Below, in pieces: positions 11,726-56,453 of a stretch of 64,000 nucleotides of DNA. Position 1 is the stretch's first letter; each line of letters begins with the position of its first letter. The position numbers were made by a program, and so were the translations under genes. This stretch comes from Thermoplasmata archaeon (GTDB taxonomy: Archaea; Thermoplasmatota; SW-10-69-26; JACQPN01; JAJPHT01): the NCBI GenBank assembly GCA_034667685.1, contig JAXDQU010000079.1:33891-97890 (forward strand), written 5' to 3'. The notes below the pieces were generated by a model that had not been told where the DNA came from, did not search any database, and saw nothing but the letters and a program-made list of their open reading frames with translations.

Positions 11726-11840
11726 CCGGCGAAGGGAACTGGGGAAGAAGGGAAGGCGAGGGAAGAAGGGAGCCTTGCAATGGGGCCCTTCTTCCCTCCG
11801 CTTCCCTTCTTCCCCAGTTCCGCCGCTTCCCTTCGGCGGG
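11726..11840. repeat. Long hairpin of about 115 nt with stems built from GGGAAGAA/GGGAAGG units
   Basis: ggaactggggaagaagggaaggcgagggaagaaggga ... cccttcttccctccgcttcccttcttccccagttcc. It lies between divergent terC and rps10. An AT-rich TTATATGG box follows at 11872-11882. Confidence 0.7.
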
Positions 11841-12006
11841 CTCCCCCCGCCTCCCCGCGAATCGTTATATGGGGGTCCTGGCATCGCCGCGGCAGCGCGA
11901 GCACGCGCGTCCCCGGACGCACGGCGCGGTGAAGACCCCTCGGGGCCCCATCCCGCGCACGACGCCCCGAGCCCCGGACGCGGGACCTCGCGCCGAAGGA
12001 ATCGTC

Positions 12007-12318
12007 ATGGCTCACACCGCCCGCATCAGCCTCGCCGGCAACGACCCCAAGAAGATCGACGGCGTCGCAGGCCAGATCAAGACCATCGCGGAGCGCACCG
12101 GCGTCCGCATCGCCGGCCCAATCCCGCTCCCGACGCGCCGCCTCAACATCCCCGTCCGCAAGGCGCCCAACGGCTCCGGCTCGGAGACGTACGACCACTG
12201 GGAGATGCGCATCCACAAGCGCCTCATCGACATCGACGCGGACGAGCGCGCCCTGCGCCAGCTCATGCGCATCCAGGTCCCCGACTCGGTGAACATCGAG
12301 ATCGTTCTGAGGACCTGA
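12007..12318 (+). CDS. rps10: 30S ribosomal protein S10 (uS10), archaeal/eukaryotic type
   Basis: [41 protein letters not shown] carries the GSGS insertion and [14 protein letters not shown] block of archaeal S10 and eukaryotic S20, which bacterial S10 lacks. ATG at 12007. Confidence 0.9.
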
Positions 12319-12650
12319 GCCGCAGCGAAGGCCGAAGAACGGTCTCGATAGGCCGGACCGAAGTCCGGCCGTGTCGAGATCGTCCTGCGCACCTGAAATC
12401 CCATGCTCGGGTCCGGCTGGGGCTCCGCCCCAGACCCCGCGATGCGGAGCGCGCGGAGACAGCCTGACACATTCACCTCGTCCGTCGCGGCCTCCGCGCG
12501 CCTCGCATCGCGGTCCAGGGCGGAGCCCTGGCTGCCCGTCTGGACGCCGGCCCTGCGCTCCATTCTTCATCTCCCCTGTCGATTCCCGCCGAGTCGGACG
12601 AGGGACGTGAGGCGACATTTCATATCGAGGACGCGACGCACTTCCGCCGC

Positions 12651-15204: not shown

Positions 15205-15300
15205 GAGGTTTTTCTTTTCATTTTCTGCGTGGCGCTCCGCTTTCCGCCATCACGCCAAGACGCCAACAGACCGCGTGTTGGCGTCTTGGCGTGATGACGG
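15205..15300. terminator. Bidirectional terminator region: a T-tract (GGTTTTTCTTTTCATTTTCTG) followed by a perfect 21-bp stem hairpin (15248-15296)
   Basis: T-rich runs are the archaeal termination signal. The hairpin catcacgccaagacgccaaca / tgttggcgtcttggcgtgatg lies between convergent vapC and a minus-strand small ORF. Confidence 0.6.
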
Positions 15301-15407
15301 CAAGGGGAGCCGTGGCCCATCAGGCATTCCTCGCCGCGGAAGGGCGGACGTCGGGCGCAACCACGGGGGAATCCTGCGCGACTGCGACAGAGGTTGTGAA
15401 ACAGATT

Positions 15408-15626
15408 CTAGTCCGCCTTGTCGTCGCCGCGCGGCTTTGGCTCGCGGTTGCTGACGTTCTCGGGCCGCGCGCCGTAGCGGCCGGCGTGCGCGCTGCCCTG
15501 CGAGCGGCCCACGACGCCGCCGCCCGCCTTGTCGTCGCCGCGCGGCTCCTCGACGCCAGCCATCGTGGACTCGTTGCGCGCCTCCAGGTCCTCGAAGCCC
15601 CGGAACGAGTCGTCCGCCGGGCGCAA
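15408..15626 (-). CDS. Small acidic repeat protein (2x PRGDDKA), hypothetical
   Basis: 72 aa ORF downstream of the methyltransferase gene. It contains 21-nt direct repeats (15416 and 15529). Weak call. Confidence 0.25.
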   Translation of the reverse strand: MRPADDSFRGFEDLEARNESTMAGVEEPRGDDKAGGGVVGRSQGSAHAGRYGARPENVSNREPKPRGDDKAD

Positions 15627-22488: not shown

Positions 22489-22570
22489 CCCGTGGCGCCC
22501 GAGGGACCCGAGGCGCCCGAGGCCTCCAAACCACGGGTGCCACGGGCGCCTCGGGTCCCACGGGCGTGGC
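22489..22570. repeat. Hairpin made of CCCGAGG/GGCGCC units, immediately after the 20893..22473 stop
   Basis: cccgtggcgcccgagggacccgaggcgcccgaggcc ... gtgccacgggcgcctcgggtcccacgggcg. Confidence 0.65.
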
Positions 22571-23692: not shown

Positions 23693-23752
23693 GAGGGAAG
23701 ACGGGAAGACGGGAAGACGTTGGAACGAATGTCTTCCCGTCTTCCTGTCTTC
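23693..23752. repeat. Hairpin (GGGAAGAC)x3 ... (GTCTTCC)x3, immediately after the ltaE stop
   Basis: gggaagacgggaagacgggaagacg ttggaacgaat gtcttcccgtcttcctgtcttccc. Confidence 0.7.
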
Positions 23753-23817
23753 CCTGCTCCGCCGGAGGCGGCCCGCACTACAAGAAACGCTAAGAGCCCG
23801 GCGCGGGTGCGAAACGC

Positions 23818-25380: not shown

Positions 25381-25393
25381 GCGCCCCCGTTGG

Positions 25394-25481
25394 CTCCGCA
25401 TGCGGAGACGCGGAGAGCGCGGAGGCCGCGGAGGTTGAAGGCACCGCGGTCACCGCGTCCTCCGCGCCTCCGCATGCGGAG
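25394..25481. repeat. Palindromic element of the CTCCGCATGCGGAG family (copy 1), after the paralog B stop
   Basis: ctccgcatgcggagacgcggagagcgcggaggccgcggagg ... cgcggtcaccgcgtcctccgcgcctccgcatgcggag. A second copy is at 43037-43127. Confidence 0.7.
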
Positions 25482-25535
25482 CCCGTCGAGGCGCCAAAAG
25501 AGCCTTAGCGGAAGCCCAGCCTGGCGCGGCGTAGC

Positions 25536-32303: not shown

Positions 32304-32527
32304 TATCGGAGGCCAACGGCCCACCGAAGGGCGTATCCTCCCGAAGCGCCGAGGCGCCAGCATGACGCGCAGGATGGAGGACGCGCTGGTCGCCAGCGCC
32401 ATCGGCCTGCTGCTCTTCGCCGCGCTCTGGAACGCGCCCGTCGCCGCGCTCCTGAGCATCCTCGTGCTCGCCTGGACGCTGGCCCGCGAAAGCACGCGCG
32501 GACGCGCGAGGCCGAAGGGTTAGCGCC

Positions 32528-32698
32528 CGCGCATCTCCCACGTCGTCTTCTTCACGAACGCGTCCATGGAGCCCTTCCGCTCGCACCCTTTTTGCGCGAG
32601 CGCGCAGCGCTCGCGCAAAAAGCGCGCCCGGAAAGCGGGCTACTTGCCCCGCATCTCCCACGTCGTCTTCTTCACGAACGCATCCATCGAGCCCTTCT
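32528..32698. repeat. Direct duplication of about 50 bp of the FadB-like gene's 3' end, flanking a perfect palindrome TTTTTGCGCGAGCGCGCAGCGCTCGCGCAAAAA
   Basis: cgcatctcccacgtcgtcttcttcacgaacgcgtccatggagcccttc occurs at 32528-32577 and again, with one change, at 32649-32698 where it is the true C-terminus. Confidence 0.65.
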
Positions 32699-34556
32699 GG
32701 TCCTCGGTCGCAAAGCACTGCGACACCGCTTCGAGCTCGTAGGCCAGGCCCGTGTTGAGGTCGACGTCCAGGCCGCGGTTGACGCTCGCCTTGGCGAGGC
32801 CGACGGCGACGGGCGCGTTCTTCGCGATCGCGTTCGCGAGCGCCATCGCGCGCTTCATGAGCTCGGCTGCGGGCACGACGTCGAGGACGAGCCCGAGCGC
32901 CTTGGCCTCGGCGGCGTCGAAGCGGCGCGCCGTGAAGATCAGCTCCTTGGCCTTCTGGGGCCCGATGAGGCGCGGGAGGCGCTGCGTGCCGCCGAAGCCG
33001 GGGTGGATGCCCAGCGTGACCTCGGGCAGCGCGAAGAGCGCCTTGTCCGAGGCCAGGATGATATCACAGGCGAGGGCCAGCTCCAGCCCGCCGCCGAACG
33101 CGAAGCCGTTGACCGCCGCGACGACGGGCTTGCCGCACAGCTCCAGCTCGCGGATGGCGCGCTGGCCCAGCTCGGTGAAGCGGCGCGCGTCGGCCACGGT
33201 CTTCGTCGCCATCTCCTTGATGTCGGCGCCCGCGATGAAGGACTTCTGCCCCTCGCCGGTCACGACGAGCACGCGCACCTCGGGGTCCGCGGCCGCGGCC
33301 TGCACCTGCTTCTGGAAGTCCATGAGGACCTTGTTGTTGAGCGCGTTGAGCGCGTCGGGCCGGTCGAGGGTGAGCACGCCGACGTGCCCCTCCTTCTCGA
33401 AGCGCACGAGCGGCAGGTCCCACGGCGCGTTCGCGGCGCCCAGGCGGCGCAGCTCGGCCGCGACCGGGAAGCTCGCGCCCCACTTGGCGTGCAGCTTCTC
33501 CACGAGCGCGAGCGCCCGCTTCGTGCCCATGGCGTTCATCATCGCGAAGGGGCCCTTGGCCCAGCGCAGGCCGACCGTCGCGCCCTTGTCGGTGTCCACG
33601 GCGGTGGCGACGCCCTCCTCGACCAGGCGCGCCGCGATGCCGAACGTGACGCCGAGCAGGCGCTCCTGCACCGCGACGAACTTCGCGGGGTCGGGCGTGC
33701 CCGCGAGATCCCAGTTGGCCTTCGCGACCTCGACCTGGTGGACGAGCTTCGCCGCGGGCGCATACGCCTCGCCGAAGCCCTGGTGCAGCGTGCGCTCGGC
33801 GTGCAGCGAGATCGGGACGCCGGTGACGTTCATCAGCTCGAAGGGACCCATCGTGATGCCGAACGCCTCCTTCGCCGCGGCGTCGATCGTGCTGATATCA
33901 GCGACTCCTTCCTCCAGCAGCCGGACGGCCTCGTTGACCCACGGCACGAAGAAGCGGTTCACCGCGAAGCCGTACGCGTCCGCCGTCGGGATGGGCACCT
34001 TGCCGATCGCGCGCGTCACCTTCACGAGCGCGTCCGTCGTCGCCGCGTCCGTCTCGCGCCCCGCCACGACCTCGACGAGCTTGTTGACCGCCGCCGGGAA
34101 GAAGAAGTGCATGCCCCCGAACTGGCGCGGGCGGTCGGTCGCCGCCGCGATGTCGGACACCGCGAGCGAGGACGTGTTCGTCGCAAAGATCGCGCCTGGC
34201 TTCGCGTGCCTCGACGCCTCCGCGAAGACCTCCTTCTTGACCTTCAGGTCCTCGAAGACGGCCTCGATCACGAGGTCCGCGTCCTTCACCGCCGCGTGCA
34301 GGTCCGTCGTGCCATTCAGCCGCGCCATGATCGCGTCGACCTCCCCCGCGCTCTGCTTGCCCTGCTCGACGCGCTTGCGAAGCGGGCCCTCGATCCGTGC
34401 CCGCCCCTTCTCGACGAGCTCGGGCTTGACGTCCCGCATCTGCACCTCGAAGCCGGCTTGCGCGAACGCCTGCGCGATGCCCGACCCCATGTTGCCCGCG
34501 CCCAGCACGGCGACCTTCTGGATGGCCATGCGGCGCGCAAGGCGGACGGGGCTCAT
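32640..34556 (-). CDS. Fused 3-hydroxyacyl-CoA dehydrogenase / enoyl-CoA hydratase (FadB/FadJ-like)
   Basis: N-terminal NAD-binding VAVLGAGNMGSGIA, C-terminal crotonase FIAGADIKEM. Start taken at MSPVRLARRMAIQKV. The upstream 54 codons of ORF 34718 run through the 9-mer repeat array and are likely non-coding. Confidence 0.85.
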   Translation of the reverse strand: MSPVRLARRMAIQKVAVLGAGNMGSGIAQAFAQAGFEVQMRDVKPELVEKGRARIEGPLRKRVEQGKQSAGEVDAIMARLNGTTDLHAAVKDADLVIEAVFEDLKVKKEVFAEASRHAKPGAIFATNTSSLAVSDIAAATDRPRQFGGMHFFFPAAVNKLVEVVAGRETDAATTDALVKVTRAIGKVPIPTADAYGFAVNRFFVPWVNEAVRLLEEGVADISTIDAAAKEAFGITMGPFELMNVTGVPISLHAERTLHQGFGEAYAPAAKLVHQVEVAKANWDLAGTPDPAKFVAVQERLLGVTFGIAARLVEEGVATAVDTDKGATVGLRWAKGPFAMMNAMGTKRALALVEKLHAKWGASFPVAAELRRLGAANAPWDLPLVRFEKEGHVGVLTLDRPDALNALNNKVLMDFQKQVQAAAADPEVRVLVVTGEGQKSFIAGADIKEMATKTVADARRFTELGQRAIRELELCGKPVVAAVNGFAFGGGLELALACDIILASDKALFALPEVTLGIHPGFGGTQRLPRLIGPQKAKELIFTARRFDAAEAKALGLVLDVVPAAELMKRAMALANAIAKNAPVAVGLAKASVNRGLDVDLNTGLAYELEAVSQCFATEDQKGSMDAFVKKTTWEMRGK

Positions 34557-34570
34557 GGCGTTTTCCGGCC

Positions 34571-34683
34571 GCCAGGTGGGCCAAGTGGCGCCACGTGCGC
34601 CAGGTGGCCCGCATGGCCCACCTGTGCCACCTGGCCCACCTGGCCCACCTGGCGCACCTGGCGCACCTGGCGCACCTGGCAGA
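34571..34683. repeat. Palindromic array of 9-bp units: (CCAGGTGGS)x4, centre, then (CACCTGGCS)x7
   Basis: gccaggtgggccaagtggcgccacgtgcgccaggtggcccgcatggcccacctgtgccacctggcccacctggcccacctggcgcacctggcgcacctggcgcacctggc. It lies between the FadB-like start and tRNA-Cys. Confidence 0.75.
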
Positions 34684-43036: not shown

Positions 43037-43127
43037 GCTCCGCATGCGGAGACGCGGTGCGCCGCGGAGGTCGCGGAGTCCGAGAGGCGCCGCGGTCCCC
43101 GCGCGCTCCGCGTCGCCGCATGCGGAG
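43037..43127. repeat. Palindromic element of the CTCCGCATGCGGAG family (copy 2), inserted in the lysY-lysZ intergenic spacer
   Basis: gctccgcatgcggagacgcggtgcgccgcggaggtcgcggagtcc...gcgctccgcgtcgccgcatgcggagc. The first 20 nt are identical to the 25394 copy. Confidence 0.7.
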
Positions 43128-43148
43128 CCGCGAAGCGTGGAAGCGCGC

Positions 43149-49595: not shown

Positions 49596-49671
49596 CGACA
49601 CAGGAAGGGGAGCAAGGGGACGCAAGAAGCTCCTGAGACCACCTTGCTTCCCCTTGCTCCCCTTCCTGTGT
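49596..49671. repeat. Hairpin gacacaggaaggggagcaagggga ... tccccttgctccccttcctgtgtc, after the PolDom stop
   Basis: Near-perfect stem of about 30 bp made of GGGGAGCAAG-type units. Confidence 0.7.
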
Positions 49672-49716
49672 CGGAGCGCCGCGCCGACACACTTCATATC
49701 CTTGGCCGACCCGACC

Positions 49717-52173: not shown

Positions 52174-52844
52174 GCGCCCGCCTCCTGCGCGGGGAGCCAC
52201 GACTCGGAGACCCAGTGCGCCACGCCTTCGCCGCCTGGCAGCAGGAGCACCTCGTCGGCCTGCTCCTTCAGCTCGGGCACCGCGTTCATGACGGCCATGC
52301 CGTGGCCCACGGCGCGCAGGAGCGGGACGTCGTTCTCGCCGTCGCCCGCCGCGGCGCACTCGCGCGGATCGACGCCCAGCGCGCGCAGCGCCGCGAGGAG
52401 CCCGACCGCCTTGTCGACGCCGCGCGGGAGGATCATCACGCGGTCGCGGTTGCGCACGAGGTCCCACGGCTGGCCGCGCAGGTGCTCGGCGACGCGGTCG
52501 TGGTGCGCGGCGTCGAAGCTGGCGAGGACCTCGCCGAACTCCGCCTCGACGTCGAGGCCCTCGATCGCCTTGCGCACGTCGCCCAGCGTGGGGTGCGTGC
52601 GGCGCGCGGGGCCCCCGGCGAGCTTCCAGATCGCGCCGTTCTCCGCGACGAAGGCGTCGACGTGCTTGCCCACGCGCGCCTCGATCTCGCGCATCGTGCG
52701 GCCGGTGACGACGACGACCTTGAGCCCCCGCGCGCGGGCGCGGTCGAGCACGTCGAGCGCGCGCGGCACCGGAAGGAGGTCGACGGTGGTGAGCGTGCGG
52801 TCGTAGTCGACCGCGAGGGCGCGGATCTCACGTGGCCCGGACAC
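52170..52844 (-). CDS. HAD-superfamily phosphatase (Cof/HAD-IIB type, sugar-phosphate phosphatase)
   Basis: LAVDYDRTLT (DxD motif I)...VVVVTGRT...GDGENDVPLL. Confidence 0.75.
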   Translation of the reverse strand: MSGPREIRALAVDYDRTLTTVDLLPVPRALDVLDRARARGLKVVVVTGRTMREIEARVGKHVDAFVAENGAIWKLAGGPARRTHPTLGDVRKAIEGLDVEAEFGEVLASFDAAHHDRVAEHLRGQPWDLVRNRDRVMILPRGVDKAVGLLAALRALGVDPRECAAAGDGENDVPLLRAVGHGMAVMNAVPELKEQADEVLLLPGGEGVAHWVSESWLPAQEAGA

Positions 52845-54302: not shown

Positions 54303-54422
54303 TTCCCGATTCCTCTTCCGAGCCCTCTTCCGATTCCCCTCTTCCGATTCCGAGTCCGACGCACGCCTGGCAGGACGCTCGGAATCGGAATCGGAAGAGG
54401 GAATCGGAAGCGGGCTCGGGAA
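54303..54422. repeat. Hairpin made of CCGATTCC/CTCTTCC units, lying between the divergent GT4 and GH15 genes
   Basis: cccgattcctcttccgagccctcttccgattcccctcttccgattccgag ... ctcggaatcggaatcggaagagggaatcggaagcgggctcggg. Confidence 0.7.
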
Positions 54423-56277: not shown

Positions 56278-56315
56278 TGAGACAGCGGATGCCGGCGCGC
56301 CCCGCGCGGAAAGCC

Positions 56316-56372
56316 ACGGAATCTCCGAATCTCCGAATCACGCCGTAGATTCCGAGATTCGGAGATTCCGTG
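56316..56372. repeat. Hairpin (GAATCTCC)x2 / (GGAGATTC)x2 after the GH15 stop
   Basis: cacggaatctccgaatctccgaatc acgccgta gattccgagattcggagattccgtg. Confidence 0.7.
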
Positions 56373-56453
56373 TTTCTCCGCCGGAGGCGGCCGAGGCCGA
56401 GCCTCATGCAGCGCGCCAGAAGGGTCATCCACAGCGGGGCGGCTGCCCCGCGC

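Follow-up and report, generated by a model that had tools for sequence, protein, structure and literature searches.

Why does the 3' end of a gene recur, past a hairpin, a short distance downstream of its own stop codon? Two genes raise this question within a 64,000-nucleotide (nt) stretch of DNA from a Thermoplasmata archaeon (assembly GCA_034667685.1, contig JAXDQU010000079.1, positions 33,891 to 97,890 of the forward strand), referred to here as the window: the gene for ribosomal protein S10 and a FadB-like gene. The window has a G+C content of 72%, and its nearest relatives point to a soil Thermoplasmatota archaeon as its source. An initial annotation of the sequence had interpreted both arrangements as a long target duplication made by the insertion of a hairpin element or as an integration footprint. 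Our data suggest a different answer, namely that both duplications are probably scars left when recombination between diverged alleles of one gene displaced its 3' end.

The S10 gene is of the archaeal type and encodes 103 amino acids (aa) (12007-12318, plus strand; assigned from its translation and by Pfam PF00338 Ribosomal_S10). The end in use, copy 1, is TCGAGATCGTTCTGAGGACCTGA (12296-12318), which encodes …EIVLRT and the stop codon as GTT CTG AGG ACC TGA. It is joined at GTTCTGAGGACCTGAGCCGCAGCGAAGG to a 55-nt spacer (12319-12373), and the spacer is followed by a second, untranslated gene end, copy 2, TCGAGATCGTCCTGCGCACCTGA (12374-12396), which encodes the same residues and stop codon as GTC CTG CGC ACC TGA. 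The recurrence of the S10 end past a small hairpin, as the initial annotation had described, is thus borne out: 20 of the 23 nt match between the copies and the differences, GTT/GTC and AGG/CGC, are both silent. The small hairpin (GGCCGGAC-CGAA-GTCCGGCC, 12351-12370, plus strand) lies inside the spacer together with an inverted copy of the gene end (12336-12349, plus strand; p<0.002), giving the order direct (12295-12308), inverted (12336-12349), and direct (12374-12396) along the DNA. The first two of these segments are predicted to pair with each other, forming a hairpin of 14 base pairs (bp), one of them G.U, that holds the stop codon in its loop (12295-12349).

We found that relatives of the window reveal which of the two S10 ends is native. 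Loci fetched for comparison are referred to by number (L001 and so on), and the S10 protein gave ten loci in an exact look-up. The initial annotation had proposed looking for an empty site in relatives, and for S10 such an uninterrupted site is present in L008, where the gene ends as copy 2 does and continues with 45 nt identical to the sequence that follows copy 2 in the window. Copy 2 is identical to the functional gene ends of both L008 and L007. Since the L008 end and its 45-nt flank correspond to copy 2 and its flank, copy 2 is the native end and the 78 nt comprising copy 1 and the spacer are extra. The whole insert is absent from L008 and from L010, which are close relatives with an identical S10 protein; the first 280 nt of the window gene are 98.9% identical to both.

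We next compared the S10 gene itself between these lineages and found it to be a mosaic. The window differs from L008 at eight sites in S10, and five of these lie inside the last 32 nt (Fisher p=4e-4). Within S10 positions 250-312 there is one difference between the window and L182 but five between the window and L008, while positions 200-249 show two differences from L182 and none from L008. Since the difference counts against L182 and L008 are reversed between the two segments, the left crossover can be placed between S10 positions 249 and 285. The AGG arginine codon of copy 1 is otherwise native only in L178, L182, and L185/186, and the CGC codon found in copy 2 is native in L008, L010, L002, L006, L007, L009, and L183, which comprise the window's own group and a second group.

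L182 carries the AGG end, a 55-nt spacer with the small hairpin and then TCGAGATCGTGCTGCGCACCTGA, with different DNA beyond. Its spacer is approximately 84% identical to that of the window while copy 2 differs at one wobble position only, and the proteins encoded by its flanking genes are approximately 85% identical to those of the window. The hairpin formed with the inverted copy directly follows the stop codon in L178, L009, and L006, and the sequence 3' of S10 in L009 and L006 is homologous to the window's S10 spacer. The stop-enclosing hairpin likewise occurs in L182, L009, and L006, directly after their stop codons and with co-varying stems. Since the same hairpin stands right after the stop codons of L182, L009, and L006, the spacer is the natural 3' flank of that allele type. 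L009 contains a decayed second end (…ATCCTGCGCGCCTGA) at the corresponding place, and its sequence corresponding to the small S10 hairpin forms no hairpin. Comparison of these loci shows that copy 1 and the spacer are an insertion of another lineage's allele type, the non-coding part being that allele's own flank, and that the native S10 end was displaced downstream, where it is still contiguous with its native flank.

Several further properties of the S10 region are worth describing in their own right. In the stop-enclosing hairpin, the last 12-14 nt of the gene are paired in four lineages with compensatory and G.U changes, and the stem co-varies with the AGG/CGC arginine codon; other lineages having an identical S10 protein lack this hairpin. 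Placement of a stop codon in a hairpin loop is not a general rule, as inverted copies of the gene end after the stop codon were no more common at 207 gene ends than at internal control positions. Upstream, the approximately 150 nt that separate a TATA-like GTTATATGG from the S10 start codon (approximately 11850-12006) are well conserved in L008, L002, and L007 and may be a ribosomal-protein leader. Downstream of copy 2, a long hairpin (12397-12550) is present in L008 and absent in L010 and L182; its GCGATGCGGAG motifs resemble the terminus of a repeated hairpin family described below.

The second duplication affects a 629-aa FadB-like protein in which 3-hydroxyacyl-CoA dehydrogenase and enoyl-CoA hydratase are fused (32640-34529, minus strand; Pfam 3HCDH_N, 3HCDH, and ECH_1). 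Its end in use, copy 1 (32640-32696, minus strand), encodes KGSMDAFVKKTTWEMRGK with stop codon TAG and continues into a 63-nt spacer (32577-32639, minus strand) that is unique in the window; the FadB joint reads AAAAAGGGTGCGAGCGGAAGGGC. Beyond the spacer is the displaced end, copy 2 (32520-32576, minus strand), which encodes KGSMDAFVKKTTWEMRGR (…RGR) with stop codon TAA. The stop codon of copy 2 overlaps that of a convergent 53-aa open reading frame (ORF) for a small hydrophobic protein (32362-32523, plus strand), which marks the native unit downstream. A copy of the FadB end 120 bp downstream had been reported by the initial annotation, and we find it as a 56-nt repeat (32647-32702 and 32527-32582) with 91% identity and a start-to-start spacing of 120 nt; the repeated coding part comprises the last 19 codons and the stop codon. 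The copies differ at eight nt, six of which are at third codon positions, and the stop codon is TAG in one and TAA in the other. A single lysine/arginine codon (AAG/CGC) accounts for three of the eight differences, one of them at its third position. Between the copies is a 33-nt inverted repeat (32589-32621) that had been described as a perfect palindrome; its 15-nt arms are indeed perfect but they are separated by a 3-nt loop (GCA), so it is not palindromic through its centre.

Read on the minus strand, the FadB spacer consists of a hairpin (GCCCG-CTTTC-CGGGC), GCGC, and TTTTT (together 32640-32617), then the repeat with 15-bp arms, and lastly GGGTGC. We found that its segment CCGCTTTCCGGGCGCGCTTTT has a 21-nt exact match in the FadB flank of L096 and that the closing AAAAGGGTGC is also common to both. 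The L096 flank has a longer hairpin between runs of T and A and contains no second copy of the gene end. Since the spacer matches the L096 flank in the absence of a second copy, it is FadB's own 3' flank and no dispersed element. The hairpin and five T residues after the FadB stop codon (32617-32640, minus strand; 4918-4938 in L096) resemble a bacterial-type intrinsic terminator; although the FadB proteins of the two lineages have only 79% identity, 21 nt here match exactly.

The FadB orthologue of the nearest other species, L093, has 90% protein identity to that of the window, those of L094-096 have 79-81%, and exact look-ups with FadB and UbiA returned the same strain only. In L187, a FadB-like end (…KKTTLEMRGR and the stop codon) abuts a 53-aa ORF with overlapping stop codons, as copy 2 does in the window; this ORF is 94% identical to that of the window, and the contig stops inside the repeat. 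Since such a compact tail-to-tail layout is typical of a working gene end, FadB copy 2 is best read as the former native end. The 3' end of FadB is also a gene-order breakpoint relative to L093. As a side observation in L187, the UbiA-family gene beside the 53-aa ORF (1174-1431) has a large internal deletion, with 85 codons joining its N-terminal part to its last residues. L093/L180 (GCA_021325135.1, Centralia_MAG_189) is labelled 'Proteobacteria bacterium', a label that appears to be wrong, as this assembly shares S10-TerC synteny and the 90% identical FadB with the window.

We asked how common such gene-end duplications are by taking 199 candidate gene ends in the window and comparing the final 24 nt of each with the 400 nt that follow it. 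S10 and FadB scored 20/24 and 18/24, respectively, while the remainder scored 17 or less except for one spurious ORF, which reached 18/24 without a matching peptide. In-frame matches that keep both peptide and stop codon were found for S10 and FadB only. In a local-alignment scan of gene ends, FadB scored 42 compared to a control maximum of 12. Scanning 867 gene ends in the fetched loci yielded one further case, the FadB orthologue of L098, so the suggestion that other stop-proximal duplications flank hairpins holds for this gene and for no other end in the two samples, whether at the DNA or the peptide level. A BLOSUM-based scan for older, decayed stubs, which compared the last 12 residues of 711 gene ends with downstream translations, recovered the FadB case only, and the window contained no longer-range repeats of gene ends between which a full element could lie.

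In L098, the FadB orthologue (57% identity) has the end GAGTTCGAGGGGAAGTAG, which is followed by 87 nt with a hairpin of 14-bp arms and then by GAGTTCGAGGGGAAGTGA. Its copies share a 16-nt exact match, and the stop codon is kept through two changes (TAG/TGA). The length of the repeat varies across the three cases (23 nt in S10, 57 nt in FadB, and 19 nt in L098). In each of them the joint falls no more than a few nt from a strong hairpin's base. The inverted copy of the gene end is not significant in either FadB case (window and L098), and the direct-inverted-direct pattern, significant for S10 only, is accordingly rejected as a general feature.

A central piece of evidence is the nature of the differences between copies. 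We placed an equal number of random substitutions and asked how often the peptide and stop codon survive; the observed preservation exceeds random expectation for S10 (p=0.01), FadB (p=3e-5), and L098 (p=0.01). Changes that require more than one step nevertheless keep their meaning in each case: CGC/AGG (arginine) in S10, AAG/CGC (lysine/arginine, conservative) in FadB, and TAG/TGA (stop) in L098. Since the differences are coding-silent and the stop codons are kept, each copy at S10 and FadB was in use as a gene end over most of the period since the pair split.

The arrangements are not a product of assembly. Four independent assemblies (L001, L003, L004, and L005) agree fully on the S10 arrangement and the FadB arrangement is identical in L011/L173, which rules out an assembly artefact. 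Three shorter contigs (L012, L174, and L175) end in or beside the FadB repeat and agree at 100% up to their ends; since this is the usual effect of a repeat on an assembler, these contig ends give no hint of an artefact. They do illustrate that gene-end repeats of this kind break short-read assemblies.

Taken together, these data are consistent with the following course of events. DNA of a related lineage, comprising the last codons of a gene and a 3' flank that bears a hairpin or terminator, would have been joined into the resident gene, with one crossover inside the gene and the other joint ahead of the resident stop codon, by 23 nt in S10 and by 57 nt in FadB. The incoming copy 1 would then form the end of the gene, while the resident copy 2 would be left downstream, untranslated and contiguous with its native flank. 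We infer that the first joint combined homology on one side with an illegitimate or very-short-homology join at the hairpin base on the other, as in homology-facilitated illegitimate recombination or as when repair synthesis switches templates. The S10 insert may later have moved between lineages by homologous recombination, with the gene body and the 23-nt copy 2 serving as arms. Homologous transfer from an L182-type donor is the simplest account of the window S10 allele and would keep copy 2 pristine; with a donor that already had a copy 2, as L182 does, the right-hand crossover could itself be homologous, within 23 nt. The hairpins would then be passengers, being structures of the 3' flank, and not the mobile agent. 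Since the joints lie near hairpin bases in all three cases, it is suggested that these bases are sites where repair synthesis or cutting stopped.

Several observations weigh against displacement by a diverged allele. Simple homologous exchange does not require a joint at a hairpin base, which is what all three cases have. The right-hand joint may be illegitimate, microhomology-mediated, or homologous. For FadB, no relative with an empty site was found, the L187 contig extends 30 nt into its FadB-like end, and sliding-window identity revealed no L096-like 3' segment that would make the gene a mosaic; the 21-nt match to L096 may reflect conservation of a terminator rather than shared recent origin. 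Lastly, S10 copy 2 could itself be under selection, given that it is intact in two lineages whose spacers differ by 16%; by our own rough Poisson estimate the excess conservation of its 23 nt is not significant (p ~0.09).

Events of this kind have precedents. Displacement of C-terminal gene ends at rhs, contact-dependent inhibition (CDI), and type VI secretion system (T6SS) effector loci, with homology-facilitated illegitimate recombination as the proposed route, has reportedly been described (Jackson 2009; de Vries and Wackernagel 2002; Prudhomme 2002). At those loci, an incoming homologous segment takes over the working 3' end and the old end is left as a downstream orphan; homology is confined to, or lies mainly on, the upstream side, and a direct repeat of the conserved part results, all of which resembles what we observe here. 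Incoming alleles have been documented to displace 3' ends in rhs and T6SS loci, homology-facilitated illegitimate recombination again being the suggested route (PMC5361080, Kirchberger 2017). In contrast to the rhs, CDI, and T6SS systems, the genes affected here are archaeal housekeeping genes in which both ends encode the same peptide, so that there is no functional exchange; moreover, there is no cargo gene but only a 55-63 nt hairpin flank, and the repeats are 19-57 nt long rather than hundreds of nt. This is a known kind of event, and what is unusual here is that it is miniature, free of cargo, and situated in archaeal housekeeping genes.

Among the other explanations, site-specific integration survives best, although we consider it unlikely. 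Here, an element carrying a replacement end would have integrated at the 3' end of a gene and later been deleted almost entirely, leaving attL, a remnant of 55-90 nt, and attR. The repeat lengths of 19, 23, and 57 nt lie in the range expected of attachment (att) sites. Replacement of the 3' end of icd by e14 or phage 21 was reportedly described by Hill in 1989. There, as here, the 3' end is duplicated, the foreign copy is in use, the differences are mostly silent, and the native stub lies downstream; a foreign replacement 3' end in use, with the end duplicated, is indeed a feature of e14/icd-type integration that is found at our loci too. In Escherichia coli, the icdC pseudogene is what remains once prophage e14 or phage 21 has replaced the end of icd (PMC13626634), and the silent differences between our copies are what an element-borne replacement end would produce, as with icd/icdC (PMC13626634). 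That FadB orthologues were hit in two lineages (window and L098) and that a HicB-like gene follows the FadB flank in L096 can also be counted in favor of integration.

However, in E. coli a 15-kb prophage with an integrase separates the two copies and a site-specific recombinase acts, while the segments here are 55-63 nt, contain no genes, and have homologues in the flank of the same gene in relatives. No integrase or other element gene was found in precomputed Pfam lists within approximately 6 kb of either locus, and degenerate and exact searches of viral contigs with both gene ends returned 0 matches, so an attP borne by a virus was rejected. In lineages without a second copy of the end (L178, L006, and L096), the 3' flanks of these genes are homologous to the spacers. 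Integration would furthermore require three independent, near-total deletions, each of which spared both att copies. Of the two initial readings, the integration footprint comes closer, although only if understood as a recombination scar; its integrase, element genes, and attP-bearing viral contig were not found in these searches, which covered neither plasmids nor whole genomes.

A local origin, in which replication slippage or a template switch at the hairpin made the direct copy (and at S10 also the inverted copy) in one step and the copies then diverged in place, is quite improbable in our view. It would account for the position of all three joints at a hairpin base, and two switches could yield the direct-inverted-direct order of S10. 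In addition, the small S10 hairpin looks like a local conversion of the sequence that forms no hairpin in L009 to a perfect inverted repeat. Yet an untranslated copy 2 should decay randomly, and the differences are instead coding-silent. S10 copy 1 is the allele of another lineage, with changes concentrated in the last 32 nt, which local copying does not explain. The divergence of the FadB copies (five silent changes and the triple-change lysine/arginine codon within 19 codons) implies a long time, yet no more than one codon differs at position 1 or 2. Finally, the inverted gene-end copy that a template switch might leave lacks significance in the two FadB cases.

We regard insertion of a mobile hairpin, such as a miniature inverted-repeat transposable element (MITE) or a repetitive extragenic palindromic (REP)-like element, beside stop codons with a long target-site duplication as very improbable. 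Insertion relative to an empty site (L008), direct repeats at the flanks, and a hairpin inside would all be shared with MITEs and insertion sequences (IS), hairpins are abundant in the intergenic regions of the genome, and the window does contain one true repeated hairpin family, with two copies of approximately 91 nt (25393-25483 and 43037-43129) that have a palindromic terminus CTCCGCATGCGGAG at both ends. In contrast to a MITE or IS, the inserts at S10 and FadB are single-copy, share no terminal inverted repeats between cases, and are flanked by repeats whose length is not uniform (19, 23, and 57 nt). The S10 and FadB hairpins each occur once in the window and are unrelated to each other, and among the fetched loci these hairpins and spacers were found only at the orthologous place, the spacers being locus-specific flanks. 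Nor are the copies identical; their differences are constrained by coding and specific to lineages. Apart from L098, no other gene end in the window or among the 867 ends of the fetched loci has the pattern. The long target duplication by a hairpin element proposed in the initial annotation is therefore contradicted by the coding-silent differences, the foreign S10 copy 1, the locus-specific spacers, the single-copy hairpins, and the unequal repeat lengths.

We give equally little credence to the notion that the repeated end is a selected RNA or DNA element, in which the inverted copy pairs with copy 1 or copy 2 depending on the ribosome at the stop codon and thereby regulates 3'-end formation or the downstream gene. 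Compensatory changes in the S10 stop-enclosing hairpin in four lineages, the intact copy 2 in the window and L182, and predicted folds much more stable than shuffled sequence (z = -5.7, -4.0, and -6.0) would fit such a function. It is at odds with the close relatives L008 and L010, which have an identical S10 protein without the whole insert, with the L009 remnant, which suggests that copy 2 decays freely, with the absence of a significant inverted copy in the FadB cases, and with the lack of statistical significance for copy 2 conservation.

The remaining candidates were rejected. A diversity-generating retroelement would have a similar layout, in which a gene 3' end, a hairpin, and a repeat of that end follow in order. 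The repeats of such retroelements are much longer than those described here. No reverse transcriptase was found in the precomputed Pfam lists within approximately 6 kb of either locus, the copy differences are T/C, A/C, and G/C in S10 and mostly G/C at wobble positions in FadB rather than limited to adenines, and the genes affected encode S10 and a fatty-acid oxidation enzyme. At S10, a tandem gene duplication with later deletion is excluded, as the site is empty in a relative with 98.9% identity in the first 280 nt. Matching codons, a stop codon, and a hairpin are also features of translational bypass of the T4 gene 60 type, but this would have no product, as landing on copy 2 gives the same C-terminus and then an immediate stop.

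Other repeats and hairpins that we encountered are of different kinds. A bacterial FadB homologue (L060, 5010-5060) contains a 17-nt exact tandem duplication across its stop codon with a period of 23 and without a hairpin; this is simple slippage, unlike the archaeal cases. A 24-nt exact direct repeat in the window (15413-15436 and 15524-15547, 111 nt apart; a third copy, 88% identical, is at 52406-52429) was rejected as an instance of the same phenomenon, as it lies in frame inside one small ORF (approximately 72-80 aa, minus strand). Long intergenic hairpins whose arms of 23-42 nt are made of short degenerate tandem units are found at 500-569, 11735-11821, 15234-15310, 22496-22566, 23694-23755, 34588-34655, 49596-49673, 54337-54401, and 56298-56389. 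The hairpin at 11735-11821 has one extra unit in one arm in L008, and an unrelated hairpin occupies the same position in L007; similar long hairpins follow FadB in L107, L121, L028, and L106. These hairpins look conserved in position but variable in sequence, and they do not look like copies of one element.

If 3'-end displacement is the origin of these arrangements, one extension of it can be raised tentatively, as a possibility that we hold to be rather doubtful: a gene end with its hairpin flank might constitute a minimal, self-complementing insertion that needs nothing but recombination to spread between lineages. Were this the case, its own last codons and stop codon would permit a harmless landing in the 3' end of an essential gene, and each landing would leave a fresh native copy 2, which the next transfer could use as its right-hand arm. 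A pristine copy 2 in both the window and L182, despite a 16% divergence of their spacers, would then be explained, and there would be one real route by which 3'-flank hairpins pass between the genomes of these archaea.

For annotation, these findings carry a warning: a repeat of a gene's last codons after a hairpin can be a recombination scar and should not be mistaken for an assembly error, the trace of a transposon, or a paralogue's pseudogene. Should the position of the joints at hairpin bases stem from the mechanism, such loci would be natural records of how archaeal repair handles structured DNA. More broadly, our data provide evidence at the sequence level that uncultivated, high-GC soil Thermoplasmatota exchange very short patches of DNA between lineages, approximately 85-135 nt in total in the case of S10, whose protein is identical across the lineages compared, and that such exchange leaves displaced gene-end stubs behind.

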